Below are positions 1 to 46,276 of a stretch of DNA of 46,276 nt, piece after piece. The stretch's first letter is position 1, and each line of letters starts with the position of its first letter. Origin of the DNA: a virus (taxonomy: Duplodnaviria > Heunggongvirae > Uroviricota > Caudoviricetes); the IMG/VR virus record IMGVR_UViG_2623620505_000005. The stretch is one strand, 5' to 3'. Position numbers and translations under genes: made by a program. The notes under the pieces were generated by a model that was given only the letters and a program-made list of their open reading frames with translations, did not search any database and was not told where the DNA came from.

Positions 1-90
1 TTGCCTCCCCCCCGTTGATGGGTAAAATAGCCGCAATTTTTCGTTTTCAACAAGCGCGGCGCGATGCCGCTTACTCAAGAAGAAAGAATT

Positions 91-165
91 ATGACGTTGT
101 CTCCTTATTTGCAAGAGGTGGCGAAGCGCCGCACTTTTGCCATTATTTCTCACCCCAATAATTAA
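91..165 (+). pseudogene. prfC: 5' fragment of prfC (peptide chain release factor 3), truncated at the prophage junction
   Basis: Translates [22 protein letters not shown], which matches my recollection of the E. coli PrfC N-terminus, then diverges (NN-stop) at about position 157. AT-rich phage DNA follows. Confidence 0.6.
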
Positions 166-319
166 GTCTAAATTAAAGCTCTTTTACTTTTTCAAAGTCC
201 TTTCAGTTAATTGATGTTTGGTTTTATAAGTCATTTGAATACAGTTAGTTATGTGGCTTCTTTAATTGAAAATTCTTTCATGTAACTTTAAATCGATCAG
301 GTTGCTTTCATCAAAAATC

Positions 320-376
320 TGTACATATGTTTGTACATAATGTACAAAGCAGCAGAGGTGTTTTGCGATTTGTACA
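320..376. promoter_or_regulatory. Cluster of four TGTACA palindromes directly upstream of int (candidate int promoter/operator or arm-type sites)
   Basis: TGTACA at 320-325, 332-337, 341-346 and 371-376, ending 10 bp before the int ATG at 386. Confidence 0.4.
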
Positions 377-385
377 AGGTGAGTA

Positions 386-1624
386 ATGGCGCTGTCTGAT
401 GCGTGGTTGCGTTCAGTCGTTGGAAAGGAACGTGATAAGGTTTTGGTTAAATCCGATCGTGATGGTCTGTCTGTCAGAGTATCACCGAAAGGTCGCGTAG
501 TGTTCCAATATCGTTATCAATGGGCAGGGAAAGGTGAGCGCCTTGATATCGGAACTTACCCGGCAACTGGATTAAAAGAGGCCAGAGAAGAAGTTATCCG
601 TCTCCGTGGTGAACTCGAGTCAAACCGCAATCCACGATTAGTCAAGCAGGCTGAAAAACGAAAAGCTACTGAAGCCATGACGGTAGAGTCTGTGATCCGT
701 GCCTGGTATGAAGCATATTGTGTAAAAAATAAAAAAGGTTCTGAACAGATACTCCGCTCGTTTGAGCTGCACCTGTTCTCTAAAATCGGGAATATCCCTC
801 ACGATGCAGCTACATTGCATGATTGGTTAGAAGTCCTAGAGCCTCTTAGCACCAAGACTCCAGCAATAGTAGACCGATTGCTAATTAACGCAAAGCAGGC
901 TCATGTCTGGGCGTATAAGAGAAAGCTCATTGAAACTCGCCCACTGTCGGATATCACGGGTAAAGATATGGATATCCGTAAAGGTCAGAAAAAACGGTTT
1001 CTGACACATGATGAAATTAGCATCCTTTATGCTGCGATCGATGGTTCTCGAATGGTTCCTAAATACCGAGCCTTCATTAAACTATTGCTGCATTTTGGTT
1101 GCCGTAGTTCAGAGCTAATTACTGCTAGGGTGGATGATTTTGATTTCATAAATAAGGTATGGACTGTACCACCAGAACGACATAAGACTGGGGACATAAC
1201 AGGCGAACCGCTAAAGCGGCCCATTATTGAACCGGTTGAAGAGCTTATAAAATACGTTATCTCTATGAACAACGGTTCCGATATGCTTTTTACTAAGGAA
1301 GGAAGCAGGGAGCCAGTTGGTCGGACATCATTGCAGTCGCTGCCTTACAATTTAATGCAGTTCGCATGGCGACGTTTGGGGTATCAATTTCCTCATTGGT
1401 CTCTTCATGATTTGAGACGAACAGCACGAACAAACTTTTCTGATCTTACTGCGCCTCATATTGCTGAAATAATGCTCGGTCATAAACTGCCAGGGGTATG
1501 GCAAGTTTATGATAAGAGCGATTATCTAGAAGAACAGCGTAAAGCCTATCAGGCATGGTGGGATAGGGTTGATTCGATTCTTACTTACACTAATTTAGGT
1601 TCCAACAGACAGCCTATTGAATAA
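386..1624 (+). CDS. int: Tyrosine site-specific integrase (P4-like)
   Basis: 412 aa; conserved catalytic-region motifs read in the translation (R in FGCRSSEL, HDLRRTARTN, Tyr in VYDKSDYLEE); sits at the prophage junction. Confidence 0.9.
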   Translation: MALSDAWLRSVVGKERDKVLVKSDRDGLSVRVSPKGRVVFQYRYQWAGKGERLDIGTYPATGLKEAREEVIRLRGELESNRNPRLVKQAEKRKATEAMTVESVIRAWYEAYCVKNKKGSEQILRSFELHLFSKIGNIPHDAATLHDWLEVLEPLSTKTPAIVDRLLINAKQAHVWAYKRKLIETRPLSDITGKDMDIRKGQKKRFLTHDEISILYAAIDGSRMVPKYRAFIKLLLHFGCRSSELITARVDDFDFINKVWTVPPERHKTGDITGEPLKRPIIEPVEELIKYVISMNNGSDMLFTKEGSREPVGRTSLQSLPYNLMQFAWRRLGYQFPHWSLHDLRRTARTNFSDLTAPHIAEIMLGHKLPGVWQVYDKSDYLEEQRKAYQAWWDRVDSILTYTNLGSNRQPIE

Positions 1625-1738
1625 TGAATAGACATACAGAGTAAGAAAATAGTAATGATTCTTGGATTATAATTAACTGATTGCTGATATTTCGATTTGC
1701 CGATTTATGAAGAGACGGTCATTATACTTATAAAAACA

Positions 1739-1776: not shown

Positions 1777-3372
1777 TTATGGCTGAGACTCTGGTTTAGC
1801 AATCTCGTTTATAAATTTCTTAGCTACAACAGTCTCATACTTTCTATAATCATCAAGATATTGAACATCTATATGATTTTTGTAGCGAGCATTAAATTTA
1901 TTTGCAGCCCCTGTTTTATCATCTTTACGTTCATCCGTTGGTCTGAAAAATTTATGGTAGCGGCGGGGTGATACCCCCTCAAAATCACAAAATATTACTT
2001 TGGAAGATTCTTCGTTCTTTGTTATTGCATCATTATGCAGATCAAGAGCAAGGCTTTTATCAAATGGCTCTATATATACTACTTTTTTTATTCCAGATGC
2101 GACAATATGCCTTGCACAGTTGTGGCAGGGATAGGTTGTCGTAAAAAGAATTTTATCTTTAGTATCGCCGTTTTGTTTTCTAGCCATTGATGTAATGACG
2201 TCCATTTCAGCATGAATTGATCTGGAGTACTCCATTACACTTGATATTTTGCTGTCTTTGTAAATGCCTTCTGCAATATTATCTAATTTGTTTAGAAGTC
2301 GTGTTATATTAATATCGGCAACAGTTTGTCCTGCGGAAATACCTAATACACTTCTTACTTCGGTTGATAATATGCTTTTTATACGGTCTTTAATTTTTAG
2401 CTTGTTTGCATCATTATAACACTTACCACTTTTGTGAACGCATCGATGATCGTTATCAAAATCATCACTGCTATACAACCCGCCACCAGCTTTAGGTACG
2501 TCGTTCTTACCCACGGCAAGCAAATTCCCTTCATCATCAAACAGTGCAGCCCCTACTTGACGTGATAAACAAGCTGATTGTAATGATGTTGAAAAGGCAG
2601 CATACATACCTTTCTCGTTAAAAGTTGGTGTTAAACCATTTTTGCCATGAATAAGACCGAAAAACCGATCAATCTTCTTCTTTAATTCACTTTTTTGGCT
2701 GAAGTTATTTTTAATAAAAAAATCTGAATCAAGAATGGTTTCCCCGGTTCTTTGTCCATACGGATCAGAGGATTTATTATCAATATTGATAATTAAATGA
2801 AGGTCGTCCTTTGCCGATTCGTCAGCAATGAGATTCGGAATTCGGTAATCTAAATCGCGCAAAACTCCTAACAAATAGAAATTATGCTGATATATAACTC
2901 TGAATAACTCTATTTCTTCCGGCCTTTTGAATTGATCAATGATGAAGACAGTACCTTTATATTCATCATTATTATAATCAATATTCTTTTTCGCTGCTGC
3001 GATTGCTGCAATAGCAGCTTCTGCAAGCAACTCATTTTTTTCGTAATGTTTACGAAGTTTATTGGCAATATCCTGGAGTTTTAAATGTCTATTAACTTGT
3101 GTGCTTTCGGATACCTTCAGTGCTGCGGGCTCAAAATATAATGGGTCTTCCATAAGCGCACTTATGCGGATGTGTACAACATTATACCCCCATTCTTTGG
3201 ATATCTCTTCGATAATTTTGTTTATCGTTCTCATGCCACATCCAACATATCCACACAATCCAAGATAAATATCTTTTGATTGTCGTGAATTCACAATCTC
3301 AAGTGATGATGCCGATGTTGAGCCTTTTTTTTCATTCAGCTTTTGTGGAGTTTTTTTTGCTGCTTCAGCCAT
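1777..3372 (-). CDS. avcD: P-loop NTPase / deoxycytidylate-deaminase fusion protein, AvcD/DCD-like anti-phage dCTP deaminase
   Basis: 531 aa. C-terminal half has the zinc-deaminase signature (SACLSRQVGAAL ... HAEMDVI ... PCHNCARHIVASGIKKVVY); N-terminus has a glycine-rich P-loop-like segment (GLCGYVGCGMRT). Size and architecture match the AvcD/DCD family; AT-rich relative to the phage backbone. Confidence 0.7.
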   Translation of the reverse strand: MAEAAKKTPQKLNEKKGSTSASSLEIVNSRQSKDIYLGLCGYVGCGMRTINKIIEEISKEWGYNVVHIRISALMEDPLYFEPAALKVSESTQVNRHLKLQDIANKLRKHYEKNELLAEAAIAAIAAAKKNIDYNNDEYKGTVFIIDQFKRPEEIELFRVIYQHNFYLLGVLRDLDYRIPNLIADESAKDDLHLIINIDNKSSDPYGQRTGETILDSDFFIKNNFSQKSELKKKIDRFFGLIHGKNGLTPTFNEKGMYAAFSTSLQSACLSRQVGAALFDDEGNLLAVGKNDVPKAGGGLYSSDDFDNDHRCVHKSGKCYNDANKLKIKDRIKSILSTEVRSVLGISAGQTVADINITRLLNKLDNIAEGIYKDSKISSVMEYSRSIHAEMDVITSMARKQNGDTKDKILFTTTYPCHNCARHIVASGIKKVVYIEPFDKSLALDLHNDAITKNEESSKVIFCDFEGVSPRRYHKFFRPTDERKDDKTGAANKFNARYKNHIDVQYLDDYRKYETVVAKKFINEIAKPESQP

Positions 3373-3665: not shown

Positions 3666-3932
3666 TCATGTTTTTTCCCACCCATGAAAATGTTCACCTA
3701 GGCTGGTGAGGCATTTTATGTACATCAACTCTTTGAGTTGAATCATTATTTTAGTATTTTTTCTATCATTGTGTAAATGTCTTCGTTTCAATACATCATG
3801 CTTGGGGAGCGGTCCCCGTTTCCTGATAATTAATGCTTGTGGATAGCAACGTCCGTGCCTGTATCGCTCAGACAGACGCTTACCGTGCCATAGACGTGTC
3901 TGTTCACATACGTCATTCAATAACTCCTGCAA
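3666..3932 (-). CDS. Hypothetical protein (Arg/His-rich), overlaps the excisionase-like gene in another frame
   Basis: 88-aa ORF with no recognisable domain; its start overlaps the 3' end of the 3913..4107 ORF. Confidence 0.3.
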   Translation of the reverse strand: MQELLNDVCEQTRLWHGKRLSERYRHGRCYPQALIIRKRGPLPKHDVLKRRHLHNDRKNTKIMIQLKELMYIKCLTSLGEHFHGWEKT

Positions 3933-4107
3933 ACCTGTAAATCTTGCGTGAAGCCCATTTATTTGGGCATGATTTAATATCAGGATCTGGAAAATCAGGC
4001 CTGTACTTCTGGCCAGTTCTCCGGTTTACGCTGTTCCAGCGAAGAACTGTCGATACTGAAACGCCACAGAAGTCGGCGACTTGTTTAGTTGTCATTAAGT
4101 TGTTCAT
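3913..4107 (-). CDS. Excisionase-like helix-turn-helix DNA-binding protein
   Basis: 64 aa; N-terminal TTKQVADFCGVSVSTVLRW is a typical excisionase/MerR-type HTH; located in the int-proximal early-left operon. Confidence 0.5.
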   Translation of the reverse strand: MNNLMTTKQVADFCGVSVSTVLRWNSVNRRTGQKYRPDFPDPDIKSCPNKWASRKIYRFAGVIE

Positions 4108-19226: not shown

Positions 19227-19847
19227 ATGAAAGATCAAGATGTTAGGTTCGCGGTGCATCATAAGCTTTTGAAAGAATCGCATTTAGATCCTGACTGCCT
19301 TGTGGTCGATGAATTTTCCATATCCCTTGGCGCCAGTAGAGCAGACATTGCTGTAATAAATGGTGTTATACACGGGTACGAGCTCAAAAGTGAATATGAC
19401 TCTTTGGAGCGTTTGCCTCTTCAAATCAAGCATTATTCTTCTGTAATGGACAAGGTTACTCTTGTCGTAGCTGAGAAACATCTTGAGGGAGCATTAAAGT
19501 TAATCCCAGGTTGGTGGGGCGTTAAAACGGTTTCTGTTGGGCCAAAAGGCGCCATTCTTATAAAGCACATGCGTGGAGAAAAGCTTAATCGAAACCATAA
19601 CTCATTGATGCTCGCTCAATTGCTTTGGAAAGATGAATGTATCGACGTACTTGAACGATGGGGCTATTCCAAAGGAATCAAAAGCAAGCCCCGATTTGAG
19701 TTATGGAATATTATTGCGGAAAATATTCCAATAGCGAATCTCAGGCTTGAAGTCAGAACAGCCTTAAAGAAACGCGTAGGCTGGAAAGTTAAGGCTTGGC
19801 AGGCTGAGTCTGCGCCAACCAATAAAGCTGTCTCACGACTAACGTAA
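19227..19847 (+). CDS. PD-(D/E)xK nuclease-like protein (possibly sce7726-family)
   Basis: 206 aa; N-terminal residues in the order expected for a restriction-endonuclease-like core (E in VVDEF, D in RADIAV, E-x-K in YELK); AT-rich; 3' end overlaps the convergent neighbour by 59 bp. Confidence 0.55.
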   Translation: MKDQDVRFAVHHKLLKESHLDPDCLVVDEFSISLGASRADIAVINGVIHGYELKSEYDSLERLPLQIKHYSSVMDKVTLVVAEKHLEGALKLIPGWWGVKTVSVGPKGAILIKHMRGEKLNRNHNSLMLAQLLWKDECIDVLERWGYSKGIKSKPRFELWNIIAENIPIANLRLEVRTALKKRVGWKVKAWQAESAPTNKAVSRLT

Positions 19848-20856
19848 TATGGTGCGTATGTGCAACTTTACGCCATTCTTTAGAGCCGCCAGATTTGTTA
19901 GCGCCTAATGATCTTTGGTAAATGTAATCATCCCCCCAACTAAATTTGGAGCCAAAGACTTGATACTCTGGCGAACTAACAAGGGTAGTACATAAGTTTT
20001 TAGTTTGGCCCCATCCATTTCCTTTAACTGCGGTACCTTTTACAAAGATCCATGAGGTATCGTTCGAATATCTCACTGAGACATACTGAGACATGAAGCG
20101 TGGGTCTACGCTCGTAATGGTAGAGCTAGCGGTGGGATAATCACTAAAACTTGGCGTTCTTCCATTGCTAAAATTCTGTACTACATACATCCAAAGATCG
20201 TATTCATGGCGCGGAATATGATGAACTTGATGTTGCGGTATCCCTGCCTGTGATGCAGGGTATGCGGTTGAAGATAAAATCAAGTTTCTCCACGGAGCTT
20301 GGCCTGATAATGTGTTGACCATGCTTAATGCTTGTTGTTTTAAACTATCAGTTGCGTTTTGAATATCTCCAAAATCAATGATTACATCAATTAAACTAGG
20401 ATGAATATTTAAGTGGTTAACCAGACTTGTGAATTGGTGCCATGTCTGGGGGGTGATAGATATAGCGAGCCCATTGATTAAGTTGCGTTGAACAGCATGT
20501 ATATAGTTTGTTGAATATGCGGGAGAGACAACAGGGATAATTTCCTTACCATTTACTCTAGCATCTTGGATACACATATCTAGAGGATGATGGCGGCTCG
20601 AACCATGTTTATCTAAATATTTAACATCCAGCAAAACAGGACGATTGGCTTTCCAGGATGCCGCAAGATTAATACCGAAGTCAGATAAGTAAGAACTCAA
20701 ACTCTTCTTGTAGCATTCGTTTTCATAATCCCAGTCTATGTCTGGAATGGTAATGATCGGAGTAAAACCAGAGAGCGTAGTTTGATCTAAAAGCATCAGA
20801 GATTCATATTCAGCAGGCTTCCATTTCAGCTGTGGGTAATATTGATGTTGACTCAT
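19789..20856 (-). CDS. P4 beta-family protein (Beta_protein / possibly sce7725-family)
   Basis: 355 aa; N-terminus YYPQLKWKPAEYESL resembles the start of the phage P4 beta-protein family as I recall it; strong AAGGAG Shine-Dalgarno; convergent with and overlapping the PD-(D/E)xK-like gene. Confidence 0.55.
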   Translation of the reverse strand: MSQHQYYPQLKWKPAEYESLMLLDQTTLSGFTPIITIPDIDWDYENECYKKSLSSYLSDFGINLAASWKANRPVLLDVKYLDKHGSSRHHPLDMCIQDARVNGKEIIPVVSPAYSTNYIHAVQRNLINGLAISITPQTWHQFTSLVNHLNIHPSLIDVIIDFGDIQNATDSLKQQALSMVNTLSGQAPWRNLILSSTAYPASQAGIPQHQVHHIPRHEYDLWMYVVQNFSNGRTPSFSDYPTASSTITSVDPRFMSQYVSVRYSNDTSWIFVKGTAVKGNGWGQTKNLCTTLVSSPEYQVFGSKFSWGDDYIYQRSLGANKSGGSKEWRKVAHTHHITLVVRQLYWLAQTQPAKP

Positions 20857-36143: not shown

Positions 36144-36712
36144 AAACGGGGGCTGAAGCCATCCGCGCACTGGCCACACAGCTCCCGGCGTTTCGTCAGA
36201 AACTGAGCGACGGCTGGTATCAGGTACGGATTGCCGGGCGGGACGTCAGCACGTCCGGGTTAACGGCGCAGTTACATGAGACTCTGCCTGACGGCGCTGT
36301 GATTCATATTGTTCCCAGAGTCGCCGGGGCCAAGTCAGGTGGCGTATTCCAGATTGTCCTGGGGGCTGCCGCCATTGCCGGATCATTCTTTACCGCCGGA
36401 GCCACCCTTGCAGCATGGGGGGCAGCCATTGGGGCCGGTGGTATGACCGGCATCCTGTTTTCTCTCGGTGCCAGTATGGTGCTCGGTGGTGTGGCGCAGA
36501 TGCTGGCACCGAAAGCCAGAACTCCCCGTACACAGACAACGGATAACGGTAAGCAGAACACCTATTTCTCCTCACTGGATAACATGGTTGCCCAGGGCAA
36601 TGTTCTGCCTGTTCTGTACGGGGAAATGCGCGTGGGGTCGCGGGTGGTTTCTCAGGAGATCAGCACGGCAGACGAAGGGGACGGTGGTCAGGTTGTGGTG
36701 ATTGGTCGCTGA
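36041..36712 (+). CDS. I: Tail tip assembly protein I
   Basis: 223 aa; matches lambda gpI; overlaps the 3' end of K as in lambda. Confidence 0.85.
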   Translation: MAATHTLPLASPVMARICLYGDLQRFGRRIDLRVKTGAEAIRALATQLPAFRQKLSDGWYQVRIAGRDVSTSGLTAQLHETLPDGAVIHIVPRVAGAKSGGVFQIVLGAAAIAGSFFTAGATLAAWGAAIGAGGMTGILFSLGASMVLGGVAQMLAPKARTPRTQTTDNGKQNTYFSSLDNMVAQGNVLPVLYGEMRVGSRVVSQEISTADEGDGGQVVVIGR

Positions 36713-44220: not shown

Positions 44221-44269
44221 CAAAAAAGAAAAACCGCAGACACGACGTATGCAGGACGTGCTGCGGTTT
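44221..44269 (-). terminator. Terminator for the leftward two-gene operon at the right end (also lies after tfa)
   Basis: 9-bp stem AAACCGCAG / CTGCGGTTT; on the minus strand the stem is followed by UUCUUUUUUG. Confidence 0.55.
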
Positions 44270-44384
44270 GGCTAGTAAACTTTTGATAGTGCGAGTATTG
44301 AATGATTTCCAGCCATTACTCATTTTACGCATTTCACGCGCAAGAGAAATTGAATTTTATTCCTCTGTCACCACATGACGGGGA

Positions 44385-45143
44385 TTAATATTCTGGATTT
44401 TTTATTTCTAAATCAGATAAAGCATTAATTCTTATTTTTTCTAAGGCTTTATCCATGGCCCCCTTGATTCTGTATCCATAATCATCCGGTTCTTCATATT
44501 CCTGTGGGGACGGATTTGTACCAATATTCTCAATTAATTCATTTAAAATAACAGTTACTTCTTTATTAAGAAGGACTGCTTTAGTTAACATCATCTCTGT
44601 TAATGCTGTGAAGGCTAGGCTAAGTTTCTGTTGTAGCTCTTTATTTTTTAATTTAAGGTCTTCATCGTTTAGTGCTTTATCACGGTCTTCGTGAGCCTGT
44701 TGTACTTCATCCCAAAACTGCTTTTCTTGTTCTTGATTAAAATATCCTTGATAACTATTGGCTACATATGTTGGCATCATGTGAATCTCAATAATTTCAA
44801 ATTCATTATCAGCCCATTTTTTTATACTAAGTAACTGAGTGTAAATGTACTCATACATATCGTACTTTTTTTGCCAGATTTGTTGAGAAATCCACAACTC
44901 AGAAGTAATCTTTTTTTCTATATCTTTGATAGTTGTTGTATTTAATGCTAACTGCTTTCTGAGTATTTCATAGTTAGCGTTGGTAGCAGAAATTTTTGCT
45001 TTTTCAGTTATAAAAGAAACAATAAAGTTCACTATGAGAGCTGCAATAATAATAGCGAAGCTCAACCCTAAAATCTCTGTGGTTGAGAAATTAGATGACT
45101 GTAATGCTTTGATAAGTTCAAAAAACTGTTTTTCTGTGAGCAT
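44385..45143 (-). CDS. Hypothetical membrane-anchored protein, downstream gene of a right-arm accessory operon
   Basis: 252 aa; one N-terminal hydrophobic helix (ILGLSFAIIIAALIVNFIVSFI) then a Lys/Glu-rich, probably coiled-coil region; AT-rich; no recognised domain. Confidence 0.6.
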   Translation of the reverse strand: MLTEKQFFELIKALQSSNFSTTEILGLSFAIIIAALIVNFIVSFITEKAKISATNANYEILRKQLALNTTTIKDIEKKITSELWISQQIWQKKYDMYEYIYTQLLSIKKWADNEFEIIEIHMMPTYVANSYQGYFNQEQEKQFWDEVQQAHEDRDKALNDEDLKLKNKELQQKLSLAFTALTEMMLTKAVLLNKEVTVILNELIENIGTNPSPQEYEEPDDYGYRIKGAMDKALEKIRINALSDLEIKNPEY

Positions 45144-45241
45144 GGTGCCTTACCAAAAATTAAGACTGTTATCTATATAAAAATGTTACCCAAGAGGGAT
45201 TGTAATGAAATAACAAACCGGCACATTGGCCGGTTTGAAGT

Positions 45242-46276
45242 TCAAGGGGGTGAGATTGTAGAGGCGTTACCTTGTTCTATCACACCAGACCTAATCTTAT
45301 AACTACCAAGGATGTTGACCGTTTTATTATTTTTCATCGCGTCAAAAATTAAGCCTATTTCATCAGGATCATTGATAAAACTGGTATCAACATAGATCGG
45401 GAATGAATCATCACCTGTTGGCTCATGGCAGCTTAACGTTAGCTTATCGGCTGAGCGTTTTATACTATCAATGACAACTTCCAATGTTTGCTGCTCTGAC
45501 TTAGCCTTTTCAATTGGGTTCTTGATGATTTCTTGAACCTGACCTTGCGAAAGCTCAATATTGCTGGCCCCGCGGATCGTCACTTTGTCTGCATCAGATG
45601 CACCTTTAAGAACTCCAGTGTATGCCTTAGCTGTGTGCTCTTGGATACCTTCGGCGCGCTCTATCGTATCAATACCTTCATGTGCTTTTATTGCAGACAG
45701 CATACCATCGCGTAGAATTGTCATCCGCTCGGATTCTGCTCGCTGTTTTGCTTCTTCCAGTTGTAACTCAATAGTTTTGGTTTCGACTTGTGTCTGATGA
45801 TCTAAGTAGGACGTACCGACCCATGCGCCGCCTAAAACTAAGACAGCAAACAGGAAACACATTGTTTTCTGTCTTGGGCTCATACCTTGTGTTACCTTCT
45901 CAAATGCGTTACCAAAGGAATCAATAAGTTCTTTAACTGAGGTGATAATTTCTGTGCAGCCAGGATTGATAGTAAAAACCAACTCTGCAGCTTCTCGATC
46001 CTCAGCAGTGAGCTTCTGTAAGTTAGAGGTTTTGTACTTGATTAGAGTAAAAACCTTGTACATCTCAGTTTGAAATTCACAGATACCCTGTGCCAAACTT
46101 GCAGGCAGAGTACCATTATACTTATCTTCATCACCAAAAAATTTGAAATCAATACTTTCTAAGAAGTTTAACTTCAAATTTTCAATGTGGATTTCTTCGC
46201 CTGAAATAACTCGTCCGAAAATATTTTCTATATCATCAATATCATTGATTTCATAGGCCTGAATTGCATCTTCCAT
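45242..46276 (-). CDS. Hypothetical protein with a central transmembrane segment, upstream gene of the right-arm accessory operon
   Basis: 344 aa; central hydrophobic helix (MCFLFAVLVLGGAWVGTSYL) followed by a coiled-coil-like region; the start codon is at the last base of the window, so the 5' end may be incomplete. Confidence 0.55.
   Translation of the reverse strand: MEDAIQAYEINDIDDIENIFGRVISGEEIHIENLKLNFLESIDFKFFGDEDKYNGTLPASLAQGICEFQTEMYKVFTLIKYKTSNLQKLTAEDREAAELVFTINPGCTEIITSVKELIDSFGNAFEKVTQGMSPRQKTMCFLFAVLVLGGAWVGTSYLDHQTQVETKTIELQLEEAKQRAESERMTILRDGMLSAIKAHEGIDTIERAEGIQEHTAKAYTGVLKGASDADKVTIRGASNIELSQGQVQEIIKNPIEKAKSEQQTLEVVIDSIKRSADKLTLSCHEPTGDDSFPIYVDTSFINDPDEIGLIFDAMKNNKTVNILGSYKIRSGVIEQGNASTISPP

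Follow-up and report, generated by a model that had tools for sequence, protein, structure and literature searches.

The question raised by this locus is what becomes of prfC, the gene encoding release factor 3 (RF3), when a prophage inserts itself within its first codons. The window, by which we mean the whole analysed stretch of 46,276 nucleotides, begins with the 5' end of prfC and then runs into phage DNA and an integrase gene, and it had been predicted that integration split prfC, with the rest of the gene lying past the right prophage end behind a phage-supplied start. Based on comparisons with an uninterrupted prfC locus, with related lysogens and with free phages, we propose that positions 1-385 are the left attachment site (attL) of a ~47-kb, lambda-like prophage of the cdtI / Stx1a-Stx2c "prfC" type; we put the probability of this explanation as a whole at about 0.9.

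Positions 1-155 of the window align without a single mismatch to Escherichia coli K-12 MG1655 (locus L003, 2325-2479), from the first base after the yjjG stop codon to prfC codon 22, while the alignment of the window with K-12 from base 156 onward shows no similarity. In K-12 MG1655 the order of the locus is yjjG, a 90-bp spacer and prfC. Positions 1-90 (+) of the window are this native yjjG-prfC intergenic region, identical to 2325-2414 of the same K-12 locus, and contain TTGCCT-16-TAAAAT (1-28), which is the sole consensus-like sigma-70 site on the + strand of window 1-500. The truncated prfC stub (91-165, +) consists of host prfC codons 1-22 (91-156; 22 residues in translation) and of AAT AAT TAA (157-165), the Asn-Asn-stop that closes the stub and is phage DNA, so that the mismatch-free alignment bears out the prediction that 91-165 encodes the first 22 residues of RF3 and then a stop. 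The host part of the left 1700 bases of the window is matched in 5424 of the 5426 complete E. coli genomes, and 91-165 is therefore not a chance open reading frame. In the closest genome, that of E. coli ARS-C101, RefSeq annotates the stub as a partial CDS of 23 codons without a C-terminus. To the right of the junction, the AT-rich phage P' arm (156-385, +) is conserved in the attP of phages cdtI and Ayreon, and a terminator scan detected no terminator-like site between the prfC stub and the integrase gene (int). That integration splits prfC is thus confirmed at the left end, where attL holds the native spacer, its promoter-like site and 22 codons. Because the phage does bear a prfC-like start of its own, each lysogen contains two similar pieces, and the stub might be taken for a phage-borne copy, with the phage inserted beside an untouched host gene. 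However, positions 1-155 match the native K-12 spacer and gene at every base and directly follow yjjG, whereas the phage copy lies at the opposite end of the prophage, behind another upstream region and with other codons 2-8. The identity with the native spacer in these alignments rules this reading out for practical purposes, its probability being close to nil.

Alignment to the uninterrupted locus had been suggested as a means of defining the attachment sites, and it defined attL and a 14-bp core, ATTATTTCTCACCC, which occupies prfC codons 18-22 (window 142-155, +); attR was defined from relatives. The core was delimited by a four-way comparison of attB, attP, attL and attR. In attB of K-12 it is preceded by ACTTTTGCC and followed by GGACGCC, and in attL of the window it is preceded by ACTTTTGCC and followed by CAATAATTAAG; in attR of ARS-C101 the flanks are ACCTTTGCA and GGATGCC, and in attP of phage cdtI they are ACCTTTGCA and CAATAATTAAG. 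This pattern of core and flanks points to a simple reciprocal exchange inside the 14-bp identity. The switch from host to phage lies somewhere within the core, position 141 being the last sure host base and position 156 the first sure phage base, and the record of a Stx2c phage (LC727876) labels the identical 14 bp "duplication due to insertion". The integrase recombined phage attP with the host attB in prfC codons 18-22 (I-I-S-H-P), immediately ahead of the GTP-binding P-loop. The left product of this exchange is the native promoter region and 22 codons joined to phage DNA, giving only a 24-codon stub that points into int. Separately, the attP of Ayreon (locus L005, alignment A2 column 332) has a host-type C just left of the core, and its identity with E. 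coli attB extends over 20 nt rather than 14; cdtI and the prophage attR have an A there.

Since the window breaks off at a cargo gene's start codon and misses attR, the right prophage end, by ~0.95 kb, the right junction was read in relatives, of which ARS-C101 is the closest (its prophage is 99.1-99.6% identical to the window; best match 99.1%). The order in ARS-C101 is yjjG, the partial stub, int, the prophage body, a dinI-like gene (-) and a 1587-nt prfC without a pseudogene flag. At the right end of this prophage, a phage-borne ATG and 16 codons are followed by the core and then by an intact prfC of 528 amino acids, the chimeric product beginning with 21 residues that lead into DAGK. In two more genomes sampled from the junction carriers, prfC is likewise 1587 nt long and carries no pseudogene flag. 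Among the 5426 complete E. coli genomes, int stands beside a prfC stub (attL type) in 698, and a phage-type upstream region is joined to prfC (attR type) in 698. In the free phages cdtI and Ayreon, from whose deposited genomes the attP sequence was taken, attP is contiguous and comprises the upstream region, the ATG and 16 codons, the core, the P' arm and int, and this contiguity indicates that the prfC-like start belongs to attP and is not made in the host; an exact-pattern scan of IMG/VR viral contigs for the uninterrupted attP junction returned no match. The prediction that the remaining prfC lies past the right end with a phage 5' end is hence borne out in ARS-C101, in the 698 attR-type genomes and in the attP of free phages. 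Judged from these relatives, the P arm would supply the right product with an upstream region, a ribosome-binding context, an ATG and 16 codons, and the phage codons would be joined in frame to prfC from codon 18 onward to yield a full-length chimeric RF3 in which residues 2-8 alone differ and which is one residue shorter. Beyond position 46276 of the window we accordingly predict a dinI-like gene (-), a spacer of ~220 bp, ATGACAAGCCTTTTGGCC...GCAATTATTTCTCACCC, GGAYGCCGGTAAGACT and an open prfC of 528 codons. ARS-C101 also carries, past the point that corresponds to the right end of the window (locus L002, 6250-6305), two CTGT-N8-ACAG palindromes resembling LexA boxes; they lie on either side of the promoter-like site of the dinI-like gene and 160-200 bp upstream of where chimeric prfC starts.

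The gene next to attL encodes a tyrosine integrase of 412 amino acids (386-1624, +) and is transcribed away from attL. Its product matches PF13356 (Arm-DNA-bind_3, E 2.1e-16), PF22022 (Phage_int_M, E 1.5e-06) and PF00589 (Phage_integrase, E 1.1e-16), all above the gathering scores, and is 38% identical over its full length (E 5e-89) to the integrase of SXT, as found in the SXT/R391 element of E. coli XH1815; GCRSSE, HDLRRT and GH...VY (Arg, His-x-x-Arg and His...Tyr), as read from the alignment, align with the catalytic positions of IntSXT. The integrase of phage cdtI has been classified in the IntSXT subgroup, which also includes P4 (PMC8138268), and the identity of 38% fits this published clustering of cdtI with IntSXT. 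The earlier designation of a P4-type integrase is loosely right, to the extent that the domains, the resemblance to IntSXT and the shared subgroup of P4 and the cdtI integrase (PMC8138268) agree with it. Four TGTACA motifs (at 320, 332, 341 and 371; 320-377) cluster just upstream of int, and thus 4 of the 10 distinct TGTACAW positions in 46 kb lie within 58 bp. Three more TGTACA motifs are found in the P arm, 68-115 bp left of the core and just upstream of the chimeric prfC start. In attP of cdtI, every repeat found centres on TGTACA, among them a 22-nt unit, TGTACATATGNTTGTACATAAT, shared by the two arms, and in SXT TGTACAAA is likewise clustered in both arms. Because of the clustering and of the parallel with the SXT module, the TGTACA clusters are most likely the arm-type sites of the PF13356 domain, and we regard them as candidates for this role by analogy. 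A 64-aa helix-turn-helix open reading frame at 3913-4107 (-), which is unannotated in ARS-C101 and whose HTH_17 and MerR matches are below the Pfam thresholds, is a weak candidate for the excisionase.

The statement that prfC is a known site for lambdoid phages, including Stx phages, holds, with cdtI, the CC119 Stx1a/Stx2c phages and the O103 Stx1 phage as examples. The int DNA is 95-98% identical to that of cdtI, Ayreon, PhiR63_1 and the Stx1a/Stx2c phages, and window 142-1700 is matched in 33 phage records with 95.4-98.4% nucleotide identity over 93-94% of its length. Phages cdtI (NC_009514 / AB285204) and Ayreon (MF807953) resemble the window in int and the P' arm (95.8% identical DNA) and have the 14-bp core and the P-arm prfC-like start of this prophage type; a dinI-like gene also adjoins attP in cdtI. 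They differ from the window in the last few integrase codons, and the cargo of cdtI is unlike that of the window, with cdtABC next to dinI where the window has AT-rich open reading frames. The prfC phages of Shiga toxin-producing E. coli CC119 (LC727876-LC727902), which carry Stx1a/Stx2c and are long-tailed and lambda-like (PMC10132054), share an integrase gene of 95.5% DNA identity and have the same 14-bp duplication annotated. An altered N-terminus of RF-3 was described for the Stx1 phage at prfC of O103 (Ogura 2007; PMC2323221). In contrast to these Stx phages, the closest relative of the window, the ARS-C101 prophage, has no annotated stx genes.

The lambdoid prophage body extends from position 156 to position 46276, with the window ending inside it. 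In the ARS-C101 prophage, RefSeq annotates a repressor region, the Q antiterminator, a lysis cassette, terminase, lambda-type head and tail genes, J, Lom, a tail fibre and cargo genes. No transfer genes are annotated there, only phage structural, lysis and regulatory genes, and with 99% identity this gene content identifies the element as a lambdoid prophage. An element of this kind could be a decayed and immobile remnant whose junction is a fossil, and in ARS-C101 both the tail fibre gene and the gene for tail fibre assembly are indeed pseudogenes. The window itself, however, has an intact tail fibre open reading frame of 767 amino acids, the integrase is not truncated and its catalytic positions align with those of IntSXT, the lambdoid gene set is complete, and cdtI, Ayreon and PhiR63_1, which share the same int/att module, were deposited as complete phage genomes. 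We therefore consider decay unlikely and retain the reading of 1-385 as attL of a lambda-like prophage. Window 36241-36454 (~210 bp, in the tail assembly / J region) fails to align with ARS-C101 (locus L059), and the two differ there by 29 bp in length.

Several genes of the prophage are of interest as cargo. A gene for an anti-phage dCTP deaminase (1777-3372, -) adjoins int; it matches the PADLOC dCTPase model (E 1.4e-163) and has a Pfam deaminase domain, and it is a defence gene borne at the prophage end. Between the lysis cassette and terminase, two convergent genes (19227-19847, + and 19789-20856, -) overlap by 59 nt and encode a sce7726-family protein and a "Beta protein" (PF14350), with matches to the PADLOC models "cll", "PD-Lambda-2_C" and "beta"; this pair (19227-20856) is possible defence cargo. 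Two AT-rich open reading frames without Pfam and PADLOC matches (44385-45143, - and 45242-46276, -) fill a slot (44385-46276) with the tail fibre assembly gene on one side and the dinI-like gene on the other. The slot beside dinI is filled by cdtABC in phage cdtI and by a reverse transcriptase and SLATT pair in ETEC6334, and it looks like an exchangeable cargo position. A direct repeat of ~100 nt, whose copies are 89% identical (window 44231-44329; ARS-C101 locus L059 46591-46689), brackets the right-end cargo open reading frames, and the copy at 44231-44329 contains the hairpin that immediately follows the tail fibre assembly gene.

The integration module may be compared with that of the SXT/R391 elements, whose right ends were located in 49 species genomes with a published primer, with a core-like motif in 33 loci. 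In these 33 SXT loci the element supplies the N-terminus (20 residues) with occasional synonymous base changes, and host variation starts at the wobble base of Ser20; the new prfC start of 22 residues supplied by SXT/R391 is found in >30 host genera. Seven E. coli genomes carry an SXT/R391 element. At attL of E. coli XH1815, host ATTATTTCTCACCC is followed by TGATGCC of the integrative and conjugative element (ICE), and at attR ATCATCTCCCACCC of the ICE is followed by host GGACGCC, which means that ICE and phage break prfC at identical codons. From the SXT junctions in E. coli the exchange can also be narrowed to CACCC, so that strand exchange probably takes place in this right part of the 14-bp core. 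The phage thus resembles SXT/R391 in targeting the same prfC codons, in supplying a new start, in its homologous integrase and in having TGTACA clusters in both arms. The two nevertheless differ in that SXT/R391 is a conjugative element rather than a phage; SXT int points towards attL beside xis, whereas phage int points away from attL; the match to E. coli is imperfect for the SXT core and perfect over 14 bp for the phage core; and the SXT P' arm continues the prfC-like reading (TGATGCC), whereas the phage P' arm does not. The SXT/R391 family is defined by integrases ~99% identical to IntSXT (PMC2791158), and the gene content and the integrase identity of 38% exclude that the element is an SXT-type ICE. 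Judged from these comparisons, the element works like SXT at prfC and is outside the SXT/R391 family. At five loci matched by the SXT primer (L015, L024, L033, L048 and L049), the normal prfC junction is absent after the primer match; L015 continues after the ICE-supplied start into a sequence that is not prfC-like (ATCATCTTCCATCCTGATGTGCG), and the other four continue into unrelated sequence. These five may be secondary sites or chance primer matches.

A key question is whether the chimeric prfC is expressed. It was also to be checked whether the reconstituted gene has an intact start codon and promoter: in the relatives the ATG is intact, and a consensus scan of the 220 bp upstream of chimeric prfC (the dinI-prfC spacer) found no consensus sigma-70 site on the + strand. 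A relaxed promoter scan upstream of the gene gave weak 8-of-12 candidates alone, such as TTTTCT-17-CATAAT, which ends 17 nt before the ATG. The junction could thus be as described and chimeric prfC nonetheless silent or non-functional, making the lysogen effectively a prfC mutant and the phage-borne start a by-product of the homology needed with attB. Consistent with such silence, a consensus promoter is absent, the native promoter and ribosome-binding site are removed by the insertion, prfC is non-essential (PMC2323221), and a survey of prophage sites counts prfC among the genes "disrupted" by prophages (PMC3603311). Against it, 6 codons with 8 base differences separate phage-supplied codons 9-22 from the native ones, and all 8 of these differences are synonymous, a synonymous-only divergence that indicates selection on the encoded RF3 segment and, probably, its translation. 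In the chimeric gene the frame and the ATG are also kept, as is a purine-rich stretch before AATTATG; the 528-codon open reading frame is intact in each of the three genomes examined out of the 698 junction carriers; and a working promoter has been reported for the homologous SXT module. For the dusA-specific IMEVchUSA3, expression was demonstrated experimentally with a lacZ fusion (PMC8409611), but that element differs from the one in the window in target gene, integrase lineage and element type. On balance a silent chimeric gene seems improbable, and prfC rebuilt at the right end is probably expressed, presumably from a phage-borne promoter.

A more speculative extension, to which we give little weight, is that integration may amount to a reciprocal promoter swap between int and prfC that links RF3 expression to the prophage state. 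As long as the phage is free, int is directly preceded, on its own strand, by the prfC-like upstream region with its 23-codon leader. After integration the phage upstream region would instead face chimeric prfC, while the host prfC promoter with the 24-codon stub would read into int, no terminator having been detected between them, and the TGTACA sites upstream of both int and chimeric prfC could make the two genes integrase-responsive.

The original prediction is correct in its substance, and all the essentials of what it describes are already known from publications or database records, including the use of the site by Stx and Cdt phages, the altered N-terminus, the 14-bp duplication and the precedent of SXT. 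Although prfC is listed as "disrupted" in the survey cited above, the junctions suggest that "rebuilt" is the better word for prfC in lysogens. For annotation, this means that the 24-codon stub is not a broken gene of an essential pathway and that prfC is not to be scored as "disrupted" in lysogens. Of the complete E. coli genomes, ~13% encode this chimeric RF3. The site also illustrates that one integration module can serve both a phage and a conjugative element; this module targets conserved codons near the P-loop in a housekeeping gene, which it restores on insertion. If true, the promoter swap would further tie the expression of release factor 3 to the state of the prophage.
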